A stretch of DNA of 35,812 bases, from positions 1 to 35,812 of IMG/VR virus record IMGVR_UViG_2693429554_000020; one strand, given 5' to 3'. Under the pieces are notes generated by a model. It had not been told where the DNA came from. It saw only the letters and a program-made list of their open reading frames with translations, and made no database searches. The stretch comes from a virus (taxonomy: Duplodnaviria; Heunggongvirae; Uroviricota; Caudoviricetes). Of this stretch, positions 3,278 through 34,444 are shown piece after piece. The first letter of the stretch is position 1. Each line of letters starts with the position of its first letter. The position numbers and the translations under genes were made by a program.

Positions 3278-4357
3278 TCAGAACGGGTCCTCCTGTACTC
3301 TGGCTTTTTTCTTTTTCCGCGCGCCGGGATCTTCGGGTTCAGGCAGATAAGCATCAGGCGGGCCGACACGGATTTCCGTCAGGGTTCCGTTCTGGTCCTG
3401 AGTAAACGTGACTTCCGAAACAAGCAGTTCGGTATTGTCGAAACCACAGACCGGATCGAAGACAATCACCCGCTGGTTGGGCTGCCACAGCGTACCGTTA
3501 CCCTGTCGCCAGCCCTGCACCACATAGGTGGTTTCATCCGTCCGCGCCGCCCGTTGTCGGGCTTCAAAGTCAGCACGCGCAATACAGCCTGCCCCCGTGG
3601 CCTGCCCTGTCTGCCTGATATACATCGGACGGTAACGGGCAATAAATGCGTCCTCTGTGCGGGCCCGCAGCGCGGTGGTGGTGGCCTCACCGAAATCATC
3701 GTCGTTTCCGGCACGCTGCCCCGCCACCTGGTAAACAGAAAACCGCTCCCGGATACTCTTCTCCGTATCACAGGAAAGGATGTTTTCCCCAAGTACCAGC
3801 GCGGTATGTGCCCGCGTTGAGCCAATACCGCCAATCACCAGCCTGCCGTGCGGGTCGTCGTAAGCCAGCGCCTGCTGCTGACCGAGTATTTTGTTGATTA
3901 CCTCAATCACCGTTTCACCGTGATCAGGCTGAACATCAGGAATAACACCCGACGGCGCACCGCTGTTCACCACCTCAATGCCAAAAGGCGCAGCAAGCGC
4001 CTGCACAATCTGCACCAGCGAGCGTCCGTTAAACTGTGTCGGTTCGGCTGCACAGTCAATCAGGTCAGCCGTCAGACTACGTCCGGCAATACCGGTGCTG
4101 ACCGAACGGGCATCGTAACGAACGGGAGTCGCCTCCACCCAGCCGGTGATCACCAGCTCATCACCAATCAGCACTTCCACTTTTGAACCGTTTTTAATGC
4201 GCGGCTGAAGCGTGGTGATACCCTCATCTCCCGGCCACTGGCGAGTGATCTCCACACTGAAATCCCGCGCCAGCCGTTCAATACCGGCACCGATGCGCAC
4301 CGATGTCCAGCCATTCCACTCCCGGCCATTTACCCGTAGCGTGACATTGTCGTTCAT
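3278..4357 (-). CDS. Baseplate hub / tail protein (Mu gpP / P2 gpD-like)
   Basis: 359-aa ORF immediately downstream of the N-like gene; size and position fit the late-control-D/hub family. Confidence 0.55.
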   Translation of the reverse strand: MNDNVTLRVNGREWNGWTSVRIGAGIERLARDFSVEITRQWPGDEGITTLQPRIKNGSKVEVLIGDELVITGWVEATPVRYDARSVSTGIAGRSLTADLIDCAAEPTQFNGRSLVQIVQALAAPFGIEVVNSGAPSGVIPDVQPDHGETVIEVINKILGQQQALAYDDPHGRLVIGGIGSTRAHTALVLGENILSCDTEKSIRERFSVYQVAGQRAGNDDDFGEATTTALRARTEDAFIARYRPMYIRQTGQATGAGCIARADFEARQRAARTDETTYVVQGWRQGNGTLWQPNQRVIVFDPVCGFDNTELLVSEVTFTQDQNGTLTEIRVGPPDAYLPEPEDPGARKKKKARVQEDPF

Positions 4358-28486: not shown

Positions 28487-28602
28487 ATCTTTCTCCTCTG
28501 AAATCCAGAGGGGATAATGCTACTTAAAGTAGCGAATTGCAACTACTTAAAATAGAAATGACGAGCGTATGTGATGTGAGTAATCTTCTACCTATGGTAG
28601 AA
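28487..28602. promoter_or_regulatory. OR-like operator/promoter region (three CTAC-N5-GTAG palindromes, candidate pR and pRM)
   Basis: Operators at 28520-28532 (CTACTTAAAGTAG), 28543-28555 (CTACTTAAAATAG) and 28588-28600 (CTACCTATGGTAG, centred on the cI ATG). Candidate pR on minus: TTGCAA-17-CATTAT. Candidate pRM on plus: ATGACG-17-TAATCT, giving a near-leaderless cI mRNA. Confidence 0.5.
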
Positions 28603-29298
28603 GAACAGAAGTATCCAGATTTCGCCAAGAGACTAAACGAGTTAATGACAAACAAGGGAATTTCTGTCACCCAACTCAAAAGTCTTGTTGGCGTTACATA
28701 TGAAATGGCGCGGCGATACACAATCGGCGCAGCGAAGCCTCGTGCCTCTGTCATGAATAAACTTGCGTTGGCTCTGGGGGTATCGGCTTCATATTTAGAA
28801 TATGGTGTTGGCGAGAGAGAAGGATGTAAGGAAATGGCAAGCATCCCCAATCCAACAAAACCCGACGTATACAGGATAGAAGTTTTAGATCTTAGCGTTA
28901 GCGCAGGACCTGGAACCTATATGCTTTCAGACTATGTTGATGTGCTCTACGCCATTGAGTTCACAACAGAACATGCCCGTTCTCTTTTCGGTAACCGTTC
29001 TCAGGATGATATTAAGGTTATGACTGTAAATGGCGATAGTATGTCCCCTACTCTCGTTTCCGGAGATCGACTGTTTGTCGACATTTCTGTTCGTCACTTC
29101 CAGACTGATGGAATTTACTCTTTCGTTTACGGTAAGACTTTTCATGTTAAACGTCTTCAAATGCAAGGTGACAAGCTAGCCGTTCTTTCGGATAACCCTG
29201 CCTATGAGAAATGGTACATCGATGAAAAATCGCAGGATCAGCTTTATGTAATGGGCAAGGCGTTGATTCATGAGTCAATAAAATACAATCGGTTATAG
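28594..29298 (+). CDS. CI-type prophage repressor (HTH plus S24 LexA-like peptidase domain)
   Basis: N-terminal XRE-type HTH and C-terminal GDSMSPT (Ser) with downstream HVKRL (Lys). Start at ATG 28594 since the longer ORF (28537) would cover operator sites. Confidence 0.8.
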   Translation: MVEEQKYPDFAKRLNELMTNKGISVTQLKSLVGVTYEMARRYTIGAAKPRASVMNKLALALGVSASYLEYGVGEREGCKEMASIPNPTKPDVYRIEVLDLSVSAGPGTYMLSDYVDVLYAIEFTTEHARSLFGNRSQDDIKVMTVNGDSMSPTLVSGDRLFVDISVRHFQTDGIYSFVYGKTFHVKRLQMQGDKLAVLSDNPAYEKWYIDEKSQDQLYVMGKALIHESIKYNRL

Positions 29299-29313: not shown

Positions 29314-29661
29314 ATGGCTAGTGAGCAGGGATTCGAAAAGATTAACATGGATATGTTGGTCTCTTATTTCTCAGAAAAGAATATATATCTAAAATGTACA
29401 CTATGTGGACACGACAGATTGACTGTGCCTCAAGTCAGCGCGAATGTGGGCATGCCATGTACTATGAAACTTGGTAGTTATGTGAATGTTTTTACTGAAA
29501 AAAGCATTTATTCTGATACTGCTAACCAGTATTACTTTTCACTAATATGCAACAATTGTGGAAATGAAATTCATATAAATGCGTTTTCAGTTTTGAACTG
29601 GGTAAATGAAAAGTTCCCAGCAAAAACGGAAGATGAAAAAAATGCCGACGCCGCAAAATAA
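29314..29661 (+). CDS. Zinc-ribbon protein co-transcribed with cI (hypothetical)
   Basis: 115-aa ORF 16 bp after the cI stop with AAGGG SD; CxxC pairs (CTLCGH..., CNNCGN); AT-rich. Confidence 0.5.
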   Translation: MASEQGFEKINMDMLVSYFSEKNIYLKCTLCGHDRLTVPQVSANVGMPCTMKLGSYVNVFTEKSIYSDTANQYYFSLICNNCGNEIHINAFSVLNWVNEKFPAKTEDEKNADAAK

Positions 29662-29728
29662 TGTAGTACCATTTAATAGTGAACTTCCCACAATTAGAAG
29701 ACACGGTGGAGATGGCGGAGGTGATGAC

Positions 29729-30013
29729 ATGCTTGAAGCCCGAGTCGCTAAGTTAGAAGCGAATGTTGAGGATATAAAAACAAATCTCGCAGAGATGAGA
29801 GCTGACATTCGTGATTTGCGAAACGCTCTCTCCGACACCCGACGCGATGTCGCTGTTATCCTTCAAAAACAAATAGATATAGATGAAAAGTTGTCAAAAA
29901 AACCTAGCCTAAGTGAAGTCAACAGCGCTATTTCATCAGCCGTAAATAAACAGATCGCATGGACTGTTGCAACAGGCTTGGCGATTTTAGGTCTCGCCAA
30001 ATTTATGTTTTGA
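29729..30013 (+). CDS. Coiled-coil protein with C-terminal transmembrane anchor (hypothetical)
   Basis: Track ORF 29606..30013; start at ATG 29729 preceded by GGAGGTGA SD (7-nt spacing). Heptad-like LEARVAKLEANVEDIKTNLAEM, then IAWTVATGLAILGLAKFMF. Confidence 0.45.
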   Translation: MLEARVAKLEANVEDIKTNLAEMRADIRDLRNALSDTRRDVAVILQKQIDIDEKLSKKPSLSEVNSAISSAVNKQIAWTVATGLAILGLAKFMF

Positions 30014-30319: not shown

Positions 30320-30361
30320 CTACTTTTTGTAGTTGATTTTTGCAACTTTAAGTAGCAATAT
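30320..30361 (+). promoter_or_regulatory. OL-like operators and candidate pL
   Basis: CTACTTTTTGTAG (30320-30332) and CAACTTTAAGTAG (30343-30355), with the same 23-bp centre spacing as the OR pair; TTGATT-17-CAATAT on the plus strand overlaps them. Confidence 0.45.
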
Positions 30362-30633
30362 CATTTTACCGACAACGAACAGGCAGGACGCCCACGAAGT
30401 AGCCGCCTGGGGCATATGAAGTCCAGGATGATTCGTTAGCAACAAAAAAGCGCCCTACCGGACGCTTCGCTCTTTAAAAATCAGTAACCCTCACTTTGGG
30501 CCTGGATCTGGTGGCCTGGGACGAGGTGGAATATGAAAAGGCTCTATTGGTCGACTCATTATCCAATCCTATTATGTCTCATTTCTTCGGTTTCGGTGGT
30601 TTCGGCTTCGGAGGTACATGTCCGTGAACTGGA

Positions 30634-31128
30634 TTATGCTTGTTGGTCATCATTAATATCCGTTAGTTCATTCTCTAGAGGTAGATCTCCCGCACACCAA
30701 GCAATAAATTTTTCTTTGGTTGTTAGATCGTACTTAGTTGGAACACCAGCAAAAATGCAGGCCCGAATGAAAGCCGCTCGTTCAAGTGATTTCCATGGAT
30801 TACTATCGGTATCTTGGATTTTTAAATACCTAGCTTGCAACTGATCTTCAGAAAGAGTATCAGACTCAATCAGCAGTCTTTTGTAATGCCTCGCTTGTTC
30901 TTTAGACATCCCAGCCTCCTGGCCGAACTGATAGACCAACTGAAGAACCGAAAGTACGGCAACAAACAAACCGAAAATAAATAAATTACTGTACGGGGCG
31001 AAAACTGAAAAACCGAGAACGATTAACATCAACGTTATTAATTTATCAATACGAGTTAACAACGTGTAATTCATCTTCTCCAATACATAAGAGTAGTGAA
31101 TATAAAATTTATAATCGTCTCTGGTCAT
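30634..31128 (-). CDS. Hypothetical membrane protein (two N-terminal TM helices), AT-rich
   Basis: 164-aa ORF in AT-rich DNA, antisense to the expected pL transcript; conflicts with plus ORF 30533..30844, which has a strong SD. Confidence 0.4.
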   Translation of the reverse strand: MTRDDYKFYIHYSYVLEKMNYTLLTRIDKLITLMLIVLGFSVFAPYSNLFIFGLFVAVLSVLQLVYQFGQEAGMSKEQARHYKRLLIESDTLSEDQLQARYLKIQDTDSNPWKSLERAAFIRACIFAGVPTKYDLTTKEKFIAWCAGDLPLENELTDINDDQQA

Positions 31129-31511
31129 ATTAGTCTCAGTTTTCCTTGGGTGGTTTTGGAGGAACTGGAGGCTTTTGTCTTAACGGCACATGCCTCTCCT
31201 CATACTTATCTACACATCGTTCCATATAAATCCTTATCGTTGTTGGGGAGGGTTACATAATAACCAAATCCTTGTTGTTGGGGAATAACTAGGTCCACCT
31301 CGCCTGATGTGGCTAAAAGCAGGCACATAACAGCTAAGTATTTTCAACCAGAGAGAATCCTTAGCGTTGTGGTGAATGCGGCTCAGCGCACGCGGGTAAA
31401 GGTTGAGGCTGACAGTCGACCTTCTGTGGATACCCACCCGCCTGGTGTGCAACCTTCGCCAGGCACCGGGAGGCGCCCGGCACCACAACTTTATGCTGTG
31501 TGTAGTCTTGG

Positions 31512-31556
31512 CGGTACCAGCTTGTACCCTTGCTTCCGGCTGGTACCGTCCTTTTT
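31512..31556 (+). terminator. Plus-strand terminator-like hairpin upstream of HD-domain gene
   Basis: CGGTACCAGC (31512-31521) pairs with GCTGGTACCG (31539-31548), 17-nt loop, followed by TCCTTTTT. Confidence 0.4.
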
Positions 31557-31769
31557 ACAAAACAGAGAAGAGCATCACCGGACGACGGGCTCATAACCCA
31601 ATCCATCCGGGCGGCTGCCACCGCAGGTGTTCTTCTCTGTTTTGTGGAGAAACTAACCGCCCCTACGGGGGCATTTATGGAAATGTAATTGACTCAATAA
31701 TCGCCGGACGGTGAGGGCTTCCTTTTACCAGAATTCAGCGCGGTGCAGCGCATATACGTGGAGAACAAA

Positions 31770-32306
31770 ATGTCATTTATTAAAACTTTTTCCGGGAAGC
31801 ATTTTTATTATGACAGGATAAATAAAGACGACATCGTTATTAACGATATCGCGGTTTCCCTTTCAAATATCTGTCGCTTTGCAGGACATCTTTCACACTT
31901 CTACAGTGTCGCCCAACATGCGGTGCTTTGCAGCCAGCTGGTGCCGCAGGAATTTGCTTTTGAAGCTTTAATGCATGATGCAACAGAAGCATATTGCCAG
32001 GACATCCCCGCACCACTGAAACGACTTCTTCCTGACTATAAACGGATGGAAGAAAAAATAGACGCCGTAATCCGTGAGAAATACGGGTTACCTCCTGTTA
32101 TGAGCACGCCAGTGAAATATGCCGATCTCATTATGCTGGCAACCGAACGCCGCGATCTCGGGCTTGATGATGGCTCTTTCTGGCCTGTACTGGAAGGTAT
32201 CCCGGCAACAGAGATGTTCAAAGTGATTCCACAGGCACCGGGCCATGCCTACGGGATGTTTATGGAACGTTTTAACGAGTTATCGGAGTTACGCAAATGC
32301 GCATGA
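31770..32306 (+). CDS. HD-domain phosphohydrolase (YfdR-like 5'-deoxynucleotidase family)
   Basis: H..H...HD motif (FAGHLSHF...AQHAV...LMHDATEAY); start at ATG 31770 with GGAG SD (track ORF begins at 31743); 178 aa. Confidence 0.65.
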   Translation: MSFIKTFSGKHFYYDRINKDDIVINDIAVSLSNICRFAGHLSHFYSVAQHAVLCSQLVPQEFAFEALMHDATEAYCQDIPAPLKRLLPDYKRMEEKIDAVIREKYGLPPVMSTPVKYADLIMLATERRDLGLDDGSFWPVLEGIPATEMFKVIPQAPGHAYGMFMERFNELSELRKCA

Positions 32307-32659
32307 ATGTTTTCGAAATGGAAGGGTTTCTTCGTGGGAGATGTGTACCGCGAGATCTGAAAGTGAATGAAACAGATGCTGAATACCTGGTGCGTAAATT
32401 CGATGCGCTTGAAGCTAAATGTGCAGCACAGGAAAACAAAGTAATACCAGTGTCAACTGAACTGCCACCAGCAAATGAAAGTGTTTTGTTATTCGATGCT
32501 AACGGAGAAGGCTGGCTAATTGGCTGGCGTTCTCTCTGGTACACCTGGGGACAAAAAGAAACCGGAGAATGGCAGTGGACATTTCAGGTCGGGGACCTTG
32601 AAAACGTCAATATCACTCACTGGGCAGTAATGCCAAAAGCACCGGAGGCTGGAGCATAA
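32297..32659 (+). CDS. Hypothetical prophage protein (Trp-rich)
   Basis: 120-aa ORF, GGAG SD 8 nt upstream, coupled to the HD-domain gene. Confidence 0.5.
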   Translation: MRMNVFEMEGFLRGRCVPRDLKVNETDAEYLVRKFDALEAKCAAQENKVIPVSTELPPANESVLLFDANGEGWLIGWRSLWYTWGQKETGEWQWTFQVGDLENVNITHWAVMPKAPEAGA

Positions 32660-32964
32660 TGACCACTTTTACCGACAAAGAACTGATTAAAGAAATTAAA
32701 GAGCGTATCAGCAGCCTTGACGTGCGAGACGATATTGAGCGCCGTGCTTATGAAATCGCACTCCTATCTCTGGAAGTAGAACCAGATGAACGCGAAGCTT
32801 ATGAATTATTCATGGAAAAGCGTTTCGGTGACTTAGTAGATCGTCGGAGAGCAAAAAACGGCGATAACGAATACATGGCATGGGATATGACTCTCGGTTG
32901 GATCGTCTGGCAGCAACGAGCTGGTATCCATTTTTCAACAATGTCACAACAAGAGGTGAAATAA
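32659..32964 (+). CDS. Hypothetical prophage protein
   Basis: 101-aa ORF with GGAG SD; stop overlaps the next start (TAATG). Confidence 0.5.
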   Translation: MTTFTDKELIKEIKERISSLDVRDDIERRAYEIALLSLEVEPDEREAYELFMEKRFGDLVDRRRAKNGDNEYMAWDMTLGWIVWQQRAGIHFSTMSQQEVK

Positions 32965-33314
32965 TGGAGCCATACAGCCTCACACTCGATGAGGCCTGTC
33001 ATTTTCTCAAGATATCCAGACCGACTGCCATTAACTGGATACGCACAGGGCGTCTTCAGGCAACACGCAAAGATCCCACTAAGAATAAATCTCCTTACCT
33101 CACAACACGACAAGCCTGCATTGCGGCTCTTCAGTCTCCGCTGCATACTGTCCAGGTGAGCGCGGGTGATGGCATAACAGAGGAAAGAAAATGTCACTCT
33201 TCCGCAGAGGTGAAATATGGTACGCCAGTTTCACATTGCCGAACGGTAAAAGATTTAAACAGTCTCTTGGAACAAAGGACAAAAGGCAGGCGACAGAACT
33301 CCATGACAAGCTAA
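32964..33314 (+). CDS. Excisionase-like HTH protein (AlpA/Xis-type)
   Basis: [33 protein letters not shown] motif; GAGGTG SD 5 nt upstream; 3' end overlaps the integrase start by about 124 nt. Confidence 0.5.
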
Positions 33315-34354
33315 AGGCTGAAGCATGGCGGGTCAGCAAACTTGGTGAAATACCTGATATAACGTTCGAGGAAGCGTGTGTCAGGTGGCTTGAAGAGAAA
33401 GCACATAAAAAATCACTGGACGATGACAAAAGCCGGATCGGATTCTGGCTTCAACATTTCGCAGGAATGCAACTAAGAGACATTACTGAATCAAAAATTT
33501 ATTCAGCAATGCAGAAAATGACGAACCGGCGTCATGAGGAAAACTGGAAACTCAGGGCAGAAGCATGCAGAAAAAAAGGGAAACCTGTTCCAGAATACAC
33601 GCCAAAACCAGCGTCCGTTGCAACGAAGGCTACGCATCTTTCATTTATAAAGGCCCTACTAAGAGCCGCAGAGCGTGAATGGAAAATGCTGGATAAGGCA
33701 CCAATTATTAAAGTGCCTCAACCAAAGAATAAACGGATCCGCTGGCTGGAGCCCCATGAAGCACAAAGGCTGATTGATGAATGTCCGGAGCCATTAAAGT
33801 CTGTTGTTGAATTTGCACTGGCAACAGGCTTAAGACGCTCGAACATCATCAACCTTGAATGGCAACAAATAGATATGCAGCGCCGGGTGGCATGGATAAA
33901 CCCGGAAGAGAGTAAATCAAACCGCGCAATTGGCGTTGCGCTGAATGATACTGCATGTCGCGTATTGAAAAAACAAATCGGGAATCATCACCGTTGGGTA
34001 TTTGTGTACAAGGAAAGCTGTACCAAACCAGACGGAACGAAAGCGCCAACAGTAAGGAAGATGCGGTATGACGCAAACACAGCCTGGAAAGCGGCGCTGA
34101 GACGGGCTGGTATTGATGATTTCAGATTTCACGACTTGAGACACACCTGGGCAAGTTGGCTGGTTCAAGCCGGAGTCCCGTTGTCAGTGTTACAGGAAAT
34201 GGGAGGCTGGGAGTCTATCGAAATGGTTCGTCGATATGCTCACCTTGCACCTAATCACCTTACCGAACACGCACGGCAAATAGACTCGATCCTGAACCCA
34301 TCGGTCCCAAATTTGTCCCAGTCAAAAAATAAGGAAGGTACTAATGATGTGTAA
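33191..34354 (+). CDS. int: Tyrosine integrase
   Basis: 387-aa ORF with arm-binding-like N-terminus ([15 protein letters not shown]) and C-terminal [11 protein letters not shown]...VRRYAHL catalytic motif; ends 15 bp from the tRNA 3' end. Confidence 0.85.
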
Positions 34355-34368
34355 CTTATTGATTTAAA

Positions 34369-34444
34369 TGGTGCCGATAATAGGAGTCGAACCTACGACC
34401 TTCGCATTACGAATGCGCTGCTCTACCAACTGAGCTATATCGGC
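34369..34444 (-). tRNA. thrW: tRNA-Thr (anticodon CGU)
   Basis: 76-nt cloverleaf read on the minus strand: GCCGATATAGCTCAGTTGGTAGAGCAGCGCATTCGTAATGCGAAGGTCGTAGGTTCGACTCCTATTATCGGCACCA; anticodon loop TTCGTAA. Confidence 0.9.

Follow-up and report, generated by a model that had tools for sequence, protein, structure and literature searches.

The question raised by this locus is which of two conflicting open reading frames (ORFs), lying on opposite strands beside a candidate left operator and early promoter (OL/pL), is a gene. Both are found in the IMG/VR record IMGVR_UViG_2693429554_000020, a virus of the Caudoviricetes, of which positions 1 to 35,812 were analysed (hereafter 'the window', with a length of 35,812 nt). 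A minus-strand ORF of 164 amino acids (aa) and a plus-strand ORF of 103 aa overlap over positions 30634-30844; an earlier interpretation made from these letters alone (the sequence-only reading) had noted both, and considered that only one of them was likely to be real. Comparison with related prophages indicates that the minus-strand ORF is a real gene, belonging to a conserved and uncharacterised phage family, and that the plus-strand ORF is a non-coding antisense shadow. The gene lies in a minus-strand operon that also contains three conserved proline-rich micro-ORFs and is oriented head-on to pL, which raises the further question of what such an operon might do.

The coding strand of the overlapping frames

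The conclusion that the minus-strand ORF is a gene follows from its match to phrog_6315 (E = 8.6e-64, with residues 1-150 aligned to the 152-position profile), its membership of a conserved family with an invariant initial methionine, the restriction of purifying selection to the minus frame, and its annotation by the Prokaryotic Genome Annotation Pipeline (PGAP), which calls it as WP_000196298.1 in Escherichia coli UMNK88, on the minus strand only. Across the Enterobacterales, 72 homologues with 54-99% identity to the protein were found, sharing a conserved core of 150 residues. The exact protein is present on at least 1000 contigs, and a profile search of 1.84 billion representatives retrieved 221 clusters at 50% identity. 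No further annotated relatives came from a repeat of the profile search in a set of 5.8 billion proteins, and a scan of genome contigs matched only three loci. The median dN/dS of the gene is 0.14 and the codon-position entropy of 41 unique coding sequences is 0.65/0.41/1.30, while pN/pS is 0.27 in the sense frame compared with approximately 0.5-1.6 in the antisense frames. Hence, where the sequence-only reading had asked which frame is conserved in related prophages, the answer is the minus frame.

The two transmembrane (TM) helices and AT-rich composition originally ascribed to this gene are all present. The GC content is 38% in the gene, relative to 51% in the window, and a hydrophobic hairpin extends over approximately residues 29-68 (19-residue Kyte-Doolittle windows above 1.6, with a peak of 2.18). 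An AlphaFold model of the protein, with a predicted local distance difference test score (pLDDT) of 79, consists of two long helices at residues 3-43 and 47-88 followed by four C-terminal helices. The distribution of charge and the very short loop between the helices suggest that the protein would be situated in the inner membrane with an N-in/C-in topology and a cytoplasmic helical C-terminal domain.

The plus-strand ORF has in its favour the same features that first drew attention to it. Its ATG, approximately 165 nt downstream of pL, is preceded by a strong Shine-Dalgarno (SD) sequence (GAGGTGG at 30523-30529, 3 nt, AAT, before the start codon, or 6 nt when counted from the GAGG core), and the predicted product has a signal peptide-like N-terminus (a maximum of 1.84 in 19-residue Kyte-Doolittle windows, at residue 12) and, as had been noted, is not rich in arginine. 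These signals would suit the first gene of the pL operon, encoding a secreted protein at the position that N occupies in lambda, in which case the minus-strand ORF would be spurious. Such a reading is highly improbable and, as far as comparative data allow, refuted. The protein matched no family above threshold in scans of Pfam, PHROG, PADLOC and NCBIfam, and a collection of 15 billion predicted proteins lacks its exact sequence, which is not called on any contig there. A stop codon falls within codons 94-133 of the wobble-matched antisense frame in 35 of the 41 unique homologues. Antisense ORFs in the diverged homologues are inconsistent in frame, start codon and length, and one matching that of the window is confined to copies with an identity of 97% or more, apart from a single 62-residue open stretch in five diverged homologues. 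Between near-identical copies, most substitutions within the gene are synonymous for the minus-strand protein, but in the plus frame they include missense changes, a stop-loss and a nonsense change, and the stop and start context of that frame also varies; in one 99%-identical copy (L014), W38* of the plus-strand ORF corresponds to the synonymous D161D of the minus-strand gene.

The openness of the plus frame can largely be accounted for by the gene opposite. The third codon positions of the two frames coincide, and in permutations of synonymous codons the longest stop-free antisense run had a mean of 59 codons (standard deviation 5), compared with the 69 observed (P = 0.04). This implies that the open frame is mostly a by-product of the minus-strand protein sequence; the hydrophobic N-terminus of the plus-strand ORF arises from reading micro-ORFs 2 and 3 on the opposite strand. 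That both strands are coding, as a true overlapping antisense pair with both frames open behind plausible start signals in the window, is just as hard to credit, because every point against the plus-strand ORF applies and the antisense opening is near to what the minus-strand protein alone yields. The expectation that only one of the ORFs is real is therefore upheld, while the placing of the plus-strand ORF as the first pL gene in the position of lambda N is contradicted by its broken frame in homologues and its absence from predicted proteins. It also fails to resemble an N-type antiterminator, being neither Arg-rich nor conserved, and lying inside a swappable cassette that is absent from SfV.

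Table 1. Coordinates of the features of the window that are discussed in the text.
Feature	Position	Strand	Details
S24/helix-turn-helix (HTH) repressor gene	28537-29298		
OL/pL	30320-30361	+	operators 30320-30332 and 30343-30355; -35 TTGATT 30333-30338; -10 CAATAT 30356-30361
Intrinsic terminator of operon	30447-30468	-	GAAGCGTCC-GGTA-GGGCGCTTT then TTTGTTG; terminator scan; left edge of cassette
Micro-ORF-3, 22 aa	30491-30559	-	MSRPIEPFHIPPRPRPPDPGPK; SD AGGA 7 nt before ATG; stop TGAGG
103-aa ORF, judged not to be a gene	30533-30844	+	ATG start; antisense shadow, wobble-matched frame
Micro-ORF-2, 24 aa	30579-30653	-	MMTNKHNPVHGHVPPKPKPPKPKK; overlaps last 7 codons of 164-aa gene, +1 frame
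164-aa two-TM protein gene	30634-31128	-	ATG start; phrog_6315; identical to WP_000196298.1
Micro-ORF-1, 29 aa	31136-31225	-	MERCVDKYEERHVPLRQKPPVPPKPPKEN; SD AAGGA 6 nt before ATG; stop 7 nt before 164-aa gene ATG
Conserved non-coding leader/promoter block (putative)	31226-31327	-	approximately 100 nt, 5' of micro-ORF-1
Repeats and box in this block	31226-31327		two CCCCAACAAC repeats; TAnnnT box TATTAT 31262-31257
Hairpin in this block	31324-31302		GCCTG 31324-31320 pairing with CAGGC 31306-31302
Integrase	33191-34354		

Micro-ORFs and the setting of the operon

In the order conserved leader, micro-ORF-1, 164-aa gene, micro-ORF-2, micro-ORF-3 and intrinsic terminator, the minus-strand features form an operon, and this account of the gene structure can be regarded as almost certain. 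As identified by sequence comparison, the three conserved micro-ORFs and the operon structure are newly recognised here, appearing neither in the sequence-only reading nor in the RefSeq annotation of UMNK88, in which the micro-ORFs are not annotated.

An equivalent of micro-ORF-1, with a length of 24-35 aa, is found at 39 of 40 unique homologue loci, and has the consensus Y-E-E-K/R-H-M/L-P-x-x-Q-R-P-P-A-P-P-K followed by an acidic tail. At most loci it ends 5-10 nt before the start of the two-TM gene, with a spacing of up to 20 nt in a few, and its stop codon is usually in the context TGAGG, doubling as the SD sequence of the membrane gene. The codon-position entropy of the conserved block, 0.77/0.57/1.32, is a coding signature. 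The same arrangement is also present before homologues with 27-36% identity in Fels-2, the Yersinia phage vB_YenM_42.18, the Providencia phage PSTNGR2lys, phage EKP1 and a metagenomic contig (L082).

One to three further proline-rich micro-ORFs follow the membrane gene at 39 of 42 unique loci, and their core motif is H-V/I-P-P-K/R-P-R-P-P. The H-V-P-P-K-P-K/R-P-P block of micro-ORF-2 is common to 39 unique nucleotide versions in other loci, and the peptide type of micro-ORF-3, MSxPIEPFHVPPRPRPPQPGK, is found after the two-TM gene in many diverged loci. Over the 39 nucleotide versions, the block x-x-H-V/I-P-P-K/R-P-R-P-P-x-P has an entropy of 0.73/0.65/1.69, and is encoded using all four proline codons and several arginine codons, which implies selection on the peptide itself. 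Only three instances of the motif are present in the window of 35.8 kb, each of them on the same strand and within the operon, compared with a mean of 0.5 in shuffled sequences. A TTCGG pentamer repeat, previously described as a feature of the region shared by the two overlapping ORFs, is indeed present as four copies at 30586-30611, but its attribution has to be revised: read on the minus strand, it becomes the (CCG AAR)n run that encodes the Pro-Lys residues of micro-ORF-2.

One way in which the operon varies between homologues is at the end of the membrane gene. The C-terminal tail of the two-TM protein is variable and sometimes absorbs downstream micro-ORF sequence: the homologue from Pectobacterium (P0014) ends ...GHIPPRPRPPAPPKAQN, and in P0002 and L017 the stop codon has been lost and the repeat is read through in another frame. 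This shows that shuffling of frames and stops is frequent at the junction between the gene and the micro-ORFs.

At the other end of the operon, the putative leader or promoter block has a mean column identity of 79% across loci at which the proteins are only approximately 60% identical. When analysed with RNAalifold, the first hairpin of the block alone was supported, with one compensatory change, and a riboswitch-like leader was not considered further because a single short hairpin was all that was found. Two direct repeats, CCCCAACAAC(A)AGGA, precede micro-ORF-1 and change in concert, ACAACA being replaced by ACAGTCA in both copies at two loci (L033 and L043), which suggests that they may have a common trans-acting binder. 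Within the first copy, the sequence ACAAGGAU is similar to a GGA site of the CsrA type or to a duplicated ribosome-binding site. Promoters of the sigma-32, sigma-E and sigma-54 types were looked for by eye in the leader and rejected; a sigma-70 promoter is a weak candidate.

The operon is positioned next to a promoter that points towards it. The OL/pL candidate of the sequence-only reading has -35 and -10 elements separated by a 17-nt spacer and bracketed by two operators. In a scan of the window allowing at most one mismatch, the operator half-palindrome CTACTTnnnGTAG was found only at 28520, 28543 and 28588, beside the repressor gene, and at 30320 and 30343, the motif of OL/pL being shared with the repressor-cro intergenic region. 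The heteroimmune UMNK88 and SfV, with a different repressor, have their own TTGACA-N16-CATAAT promoter and their own operator-like repeats at the identical location. Both the operator match and the equivalent promoters of these relatives argue that the candidate is sound and fires rightwards into the operon.

The level of variation between related phages at this site was also considered. Positions 30372-30437 and 31295 onwards are common to the window and SfV, with 30438-31294 replacing the orf33 cassette of SfV; in Kati and vB_EcoM-689R6 the same slot contains another minus-strand gene, phrog_5286, and in mEp460 an HTH protein. This implies that there is a swappable accessory slot just after pL. 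In SfV itself (L001), an ORF of approximately 80 aa (MTFDEKELDNAINK...) with an AAGGA SD sequence lies on the minus strand at approximately 3310-3551, overlapping the 3' end of the annotated plus-strand orf33, and directly follows the same conserved hairpin block as precedes the micro-ORF operon. It may be that minus-strand genes, with their expression driven from the shared block, are a general feature of the slot.

The opposition of the operon to its surroundings is not peculiar to this prophage. In a comparison of 63 distinct contexts, the longest neighbouring ORF was on the other strand from the module in 52 of 56 cases to its 5' side, and in 50 of 62 to its 3' side. Prophages of Enterobacter and Klebsiella, the flanking genes of which are unrelated, have the module situated between the S24 repressor and the early-left genes, with both of these on the other strand, and it is antisense inside the early lytic operon of the P2/186-like Fels-2 and of a Yersinia P2-like phage. 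Judged from these sequences, the operon is head-on to the repressor-controlled pL, an arrangement seen repeatedly in lambdoid and P2-like prophages. Genes that run antisense to lytic operons have been described as typical of the accessory loci of prophages (PMC7067206), and the earlier suggestion that the membrane gene is a moron antisense to pL fits its conservation, its AT-richness, its own minus-strand terminator and its opposite orientation in most contexts.

The two P2-like phages also provide instances of the same annotation problem as the window. The two-TM homologue is found on the plus strand of both loci (tblastn E = 6e-19 in Fels-2 and 5e-20 in the Yersinia phage), and opposite it the deposited ORFs are at 3914-4318 (-) in Fels-2 (L080) and at 3297-3962 (-) in vB_YenM_42.18 (L081), while the upstream proline-rich micro-ORF is unannotated in each. 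The deposited ORFs, STM2733.1 of Fels-2 and vBYenM4218_008 of the Yersinia phage, are probably wrong-strand calls, which the present analysis corrects. The window itself illustrates how a strong SD sequence and a long open frame can mislead annotation.

A possible role in excluding other phages

The explanation preferred here, to which a probability of roughly one half is given when taken as a whole, is that of a minus-strand accessory operon with a SLATT-like exclusion effector, control by micro-ORFs and silencing by pL; its functional part, considered separately, is tentative and falls somewhat short of even odds. The operon would be expressed in the lysogen from its own promoter, and the two-TM protein would be a SLATT-like membrane effector that excludes superinfecting phages, or aborts their infection, via the inner membrane. 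The proline-rich micro-ORFs could control this effector, either as polyproline or tunnel-interacting peptides acting by the start site or as small partner peptides. On induction, strong antisense transcription from pL may then silence the operon, sparing the lytic growth of the prophage itself. The defence role, the regulation by micro-ORFs and the silencing by pL are each inferred.

Within the SLATT effectors, SLATT-5 is the partner of the UG17/DRT10 reverse transcriptase (RT). SLATT-domain two-TM effectors, which Burroughs et al. are said to have described in 2015 as the families SLATT_1-6, are like the protein studied here in their size of approximately 150-190 aa, in what would be a similar arrangement of N-terminal helix, two-TM hairpin and C-terminal helices, in their presumed N-in/C-in topology and in their presence on mobile elements. 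By contrast, the 164-aa gene is without a nucleotide-signalling or RT partner, and is flanked by proline-rich micro-ORFs in the immunity or early region of temperate phages. In a Foldseek search of BFVD, five of the top seven matches are named SLATT proteins (probability 0.63-0.94, TM-score approximately 0.5), and two family members are named SLATT in UniRef. Over the two-TM region, SLATT_4, SLATT_5 and TIGR04402 are recurrent sub-threshold matches in NCBIfam, with SLATT_5 at 0.066 and SLATT_4 at 0.06, far below the cut-offs of 55-60 bits.

Several observations weigh against the proposed function. The Foldseek E-values are only approximately 0.3, no PDB match was obtained in sequence and fold searches, and Pfam SLATT was matched neither by the window protein nor by the 25 + 108 family members scanned, the best result being DUF4231 at 0.071 in one member. 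No family of PADLOC-DB v2 matched the 164-aa protein at E <= 0.1. There is no SMODS, SLOG, TIR or RT partner among the neighbours, which comprise only the repressor, early-left genes and micro-ORFs. No convincing promoter for the operon was found, the best candidate being a weak -35 TTCCCC with the TAnnnT box, and the alternative cassettes in the same slot are without known defence function. The protein is called SLATT-like, and not filed as a member, because neither the hidden Markov models nor the partner genes place it there. Searches of the literature under the protein accession, STM2734, SLATT with prophage, and proline-rich antimicrobial peptide (PrAMP) with prophage found no description of the module.

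The position of the operon also has parallels. The lambda rexAB, P22 and lambda sieB, lactococcal Sie2009 and BTP1 bstA systems are accessory genes by a cI-type repressor, and several encode membrane proteins that are produced in the lysogen to block or abort other phages. The operon is like these in being beside the repressor, but it is head-on to pL, unlike rexAB and sieB, which are co-directional with cI or pL. No sequence similarity between the 164-aa protein and any of these systems was found, and none of them is known to carry proline-rich micro-ORFs. Both bstA and antisense morons have been discussed previously (PMC7067206).

For the proposed regulation, the closest comparison is with polyproline and arrest leader peptides, as in EF-P-dependent stalling and SecM, TnaC and MgtL. 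Micro-ORF-1 is similarly a short ORF ending shortly before a start codon, at the spacing given above, with a TGAGG stop that overlaps the SD sequence in most loci and XPPX runs such as RPPAPPK. It differs in that the peptide is also conserved outside the prolines, and in being accompanied by two more micro-ORFs 3' of the gene, a position in which a leader function would be meaningless.

An alternative function, considered unlikely, is that the operon is not directed against phages, but is a toxin-antitoxin (TA)-like module for addiction or stabilisation, or serves to regulate the lysis-lysogeny switch, for instance by damping a leaky pL or by modulating FtsH or induction. The tight coupling of a small upstream ORF to a larger, potentially toxic membrane protein is reminiscent of a type II TA layout, and in two unrelated phage types the operon is less than 1 kb from a repressor-controlled early promoter, which it faces. 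However, it is a swappable cassette that is absent from the close relatives SfV, Kati and mEp460, and is therefore not needed for the switch; furthermore, neither Pfam nor NCBIfam revealed any similarity to known TA families, and the AT-rich composition points to accessory cargo.

A still less likely possibility is that the micro-ORFs are themselves the effectors, being PrAMP-like peptides with a binding site in the ribosome exit tunnel or on DnaK, whether in cis or in trans, with the two-TM protein as their partner for immunity, export or anchoring in a bacteriocin-like or translation-arrest system. The core motif is under strong selection at the amino acid level, and resembles the YLPRPRPP of oncocin and the YIPQPRPP of apidaecin; oncocin reportedly tolerates the change Y6H, and E. 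coli is reported to be inhibited by PrAMPs that are expressed within its cells (PMC10862732). The peptides of micro-ORFs 2 and 3, which are cationic, extend for 4-7 residues past the PRPP core. Short (approximately 18-30 aa) and positively charged, and with what may be the same aromatic/His-aliphatic-P-x-P-R-P-P core, they are comparable to oncocin, apidaecin, metalnikowin and Bac7. The prolines of the PRP, which are essential in PrAMPs, are invariant across the 39 nucleotide versions of the micro-ORF block. PrAMPs, however, are secreted animal peptides imported through SbmA, whereas the micro-ORFs are predicted to encode cytoplasmic phage peptides. Against this alternative, the likeness is that of a short, low-complexity motif with an offset of one residue, there is no leader peptide or exporter, micro-ORF-1 has an acidic tail, distant modules such as that of Fels-2 carry the upstream micro-ORF only, and no experimental link was found in the literature. 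The similarity of the micro-ORFs to oncocin and apidaecin motifs is best regarded as a lead and not as a test.

A more ambitious formulation, which is likewise doubtful, combines elements of these proposals: an undescribed module of Enterobacterales temperate phages, both lambdoid and P2-like, in which a SLATT-like two-TM protein is found with one to four PrAMP-like micropeptides that might act on the ribosome tunnel or DnaK, either gating the effector or being effectors themselves, with expression confined to the lysogen by the head-on pL. What has been defined is a widespread prophage operon, present by DNA match in approximately 5% of complete E. coli genomes and represented by the 221 protein clusters, with three micro-ORFs under selection at the amino acid level. 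If the preferred reading of exclusion or abortive infection is correct, the operon would provide a stand-alone SLATT-like effector under micropeptide control and a simple logic of self-immunity through convergent transcription from pL, and its peptides would possibly be the first relatives of proline-rich ribosome-targeting peptides to be encoded by bacteria or phages.

The early-left region of the prophage

The window represents a lambdoid prophage of the SfV/CPS-53-like type, which is integrated at thrW (tRNA-Thr, 34372-34444), and positions 30372-33500 have 99.8% identity to E. coli UMNK88. Its plus-strand map follows the layout of lambda, in the order repressor, two small genes, operator/promoter, region of the micro-ORF operon, structured non-coding stretch, yfdR, yfdT, xis and int. 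The plus-strand ORFs downstream of pL are those of YfdR, a 120-aa protein, YfdT, an Xis-like protein and Int, in agreement with the earlier observation that no N-like antiterminator is evident there. Directly 3' of pL is a 66-nt leader (30372-30437, plus strand), with 98% identity among the window, UMNK88 and SfV despite their different repressors, operators and cassettes. This leader contains no N gene and no convincing boxA or boxB, and might provide the pL transcript with a cis-acting element, put-like or otherwise. The boxA-like sequence CGCTCTTTAA at 30470 was rejected as a nut site, as it is inside the swappable cassette and without a plus-strand boxB.

Two small plus-strand genes, at 29314-29661 and 29606-30013 with an overlap of 56 nt, occupy the interval separating the repressor from OL, where lambda has rexAB. 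One product is a CxxC-containing protein of 115 aa (phrog_4293), and the other a 135-aa coiled coil with a C-terminal TM anchor (phrog_3556), with weak matches to XhlA/hemolysin-type PHROGs. These are probably further accessory genes expressed in lysogeny.

Back-to-back with the leader of the minus-strand operon is an STnc100-like structured RNA on the plus strand (31336-31559), which matches the Rfam model RF02076 over its full length (1-206; E = 2e-7) at 42.2 bits, below the gathering threshold of 47. It ends in a strong terminator, GGCGGTACCAGC...GCTGGTACCGTCC-TTTTT, and its sequence is conserved at 95% in SfV-type phages and approximately 80% in ST64B. This RNA probably belongs to the prophage STnc100/PasD small RNA group that has been described elsewhere (bioRxiv 10.64898/2026.05.13.724894). 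Between the cassette and yfdR, at approximately 31558-31645 on the plus strand, there is also a long, nearly perfect hairpin with a stem of approximately 25 bp (AAAACAGAGAAGAGCATCACC...GGTGTTCTTCTCTGTTTT), after which a small GC hairpin is found at 31658-31673, just 5' of yfdR. The folding of 31280-31740 as a whole has a z-score of -5.0 relative to shuffled sequences, and part of it is annotated by PGAP as a frameshifted hypothetical protein.

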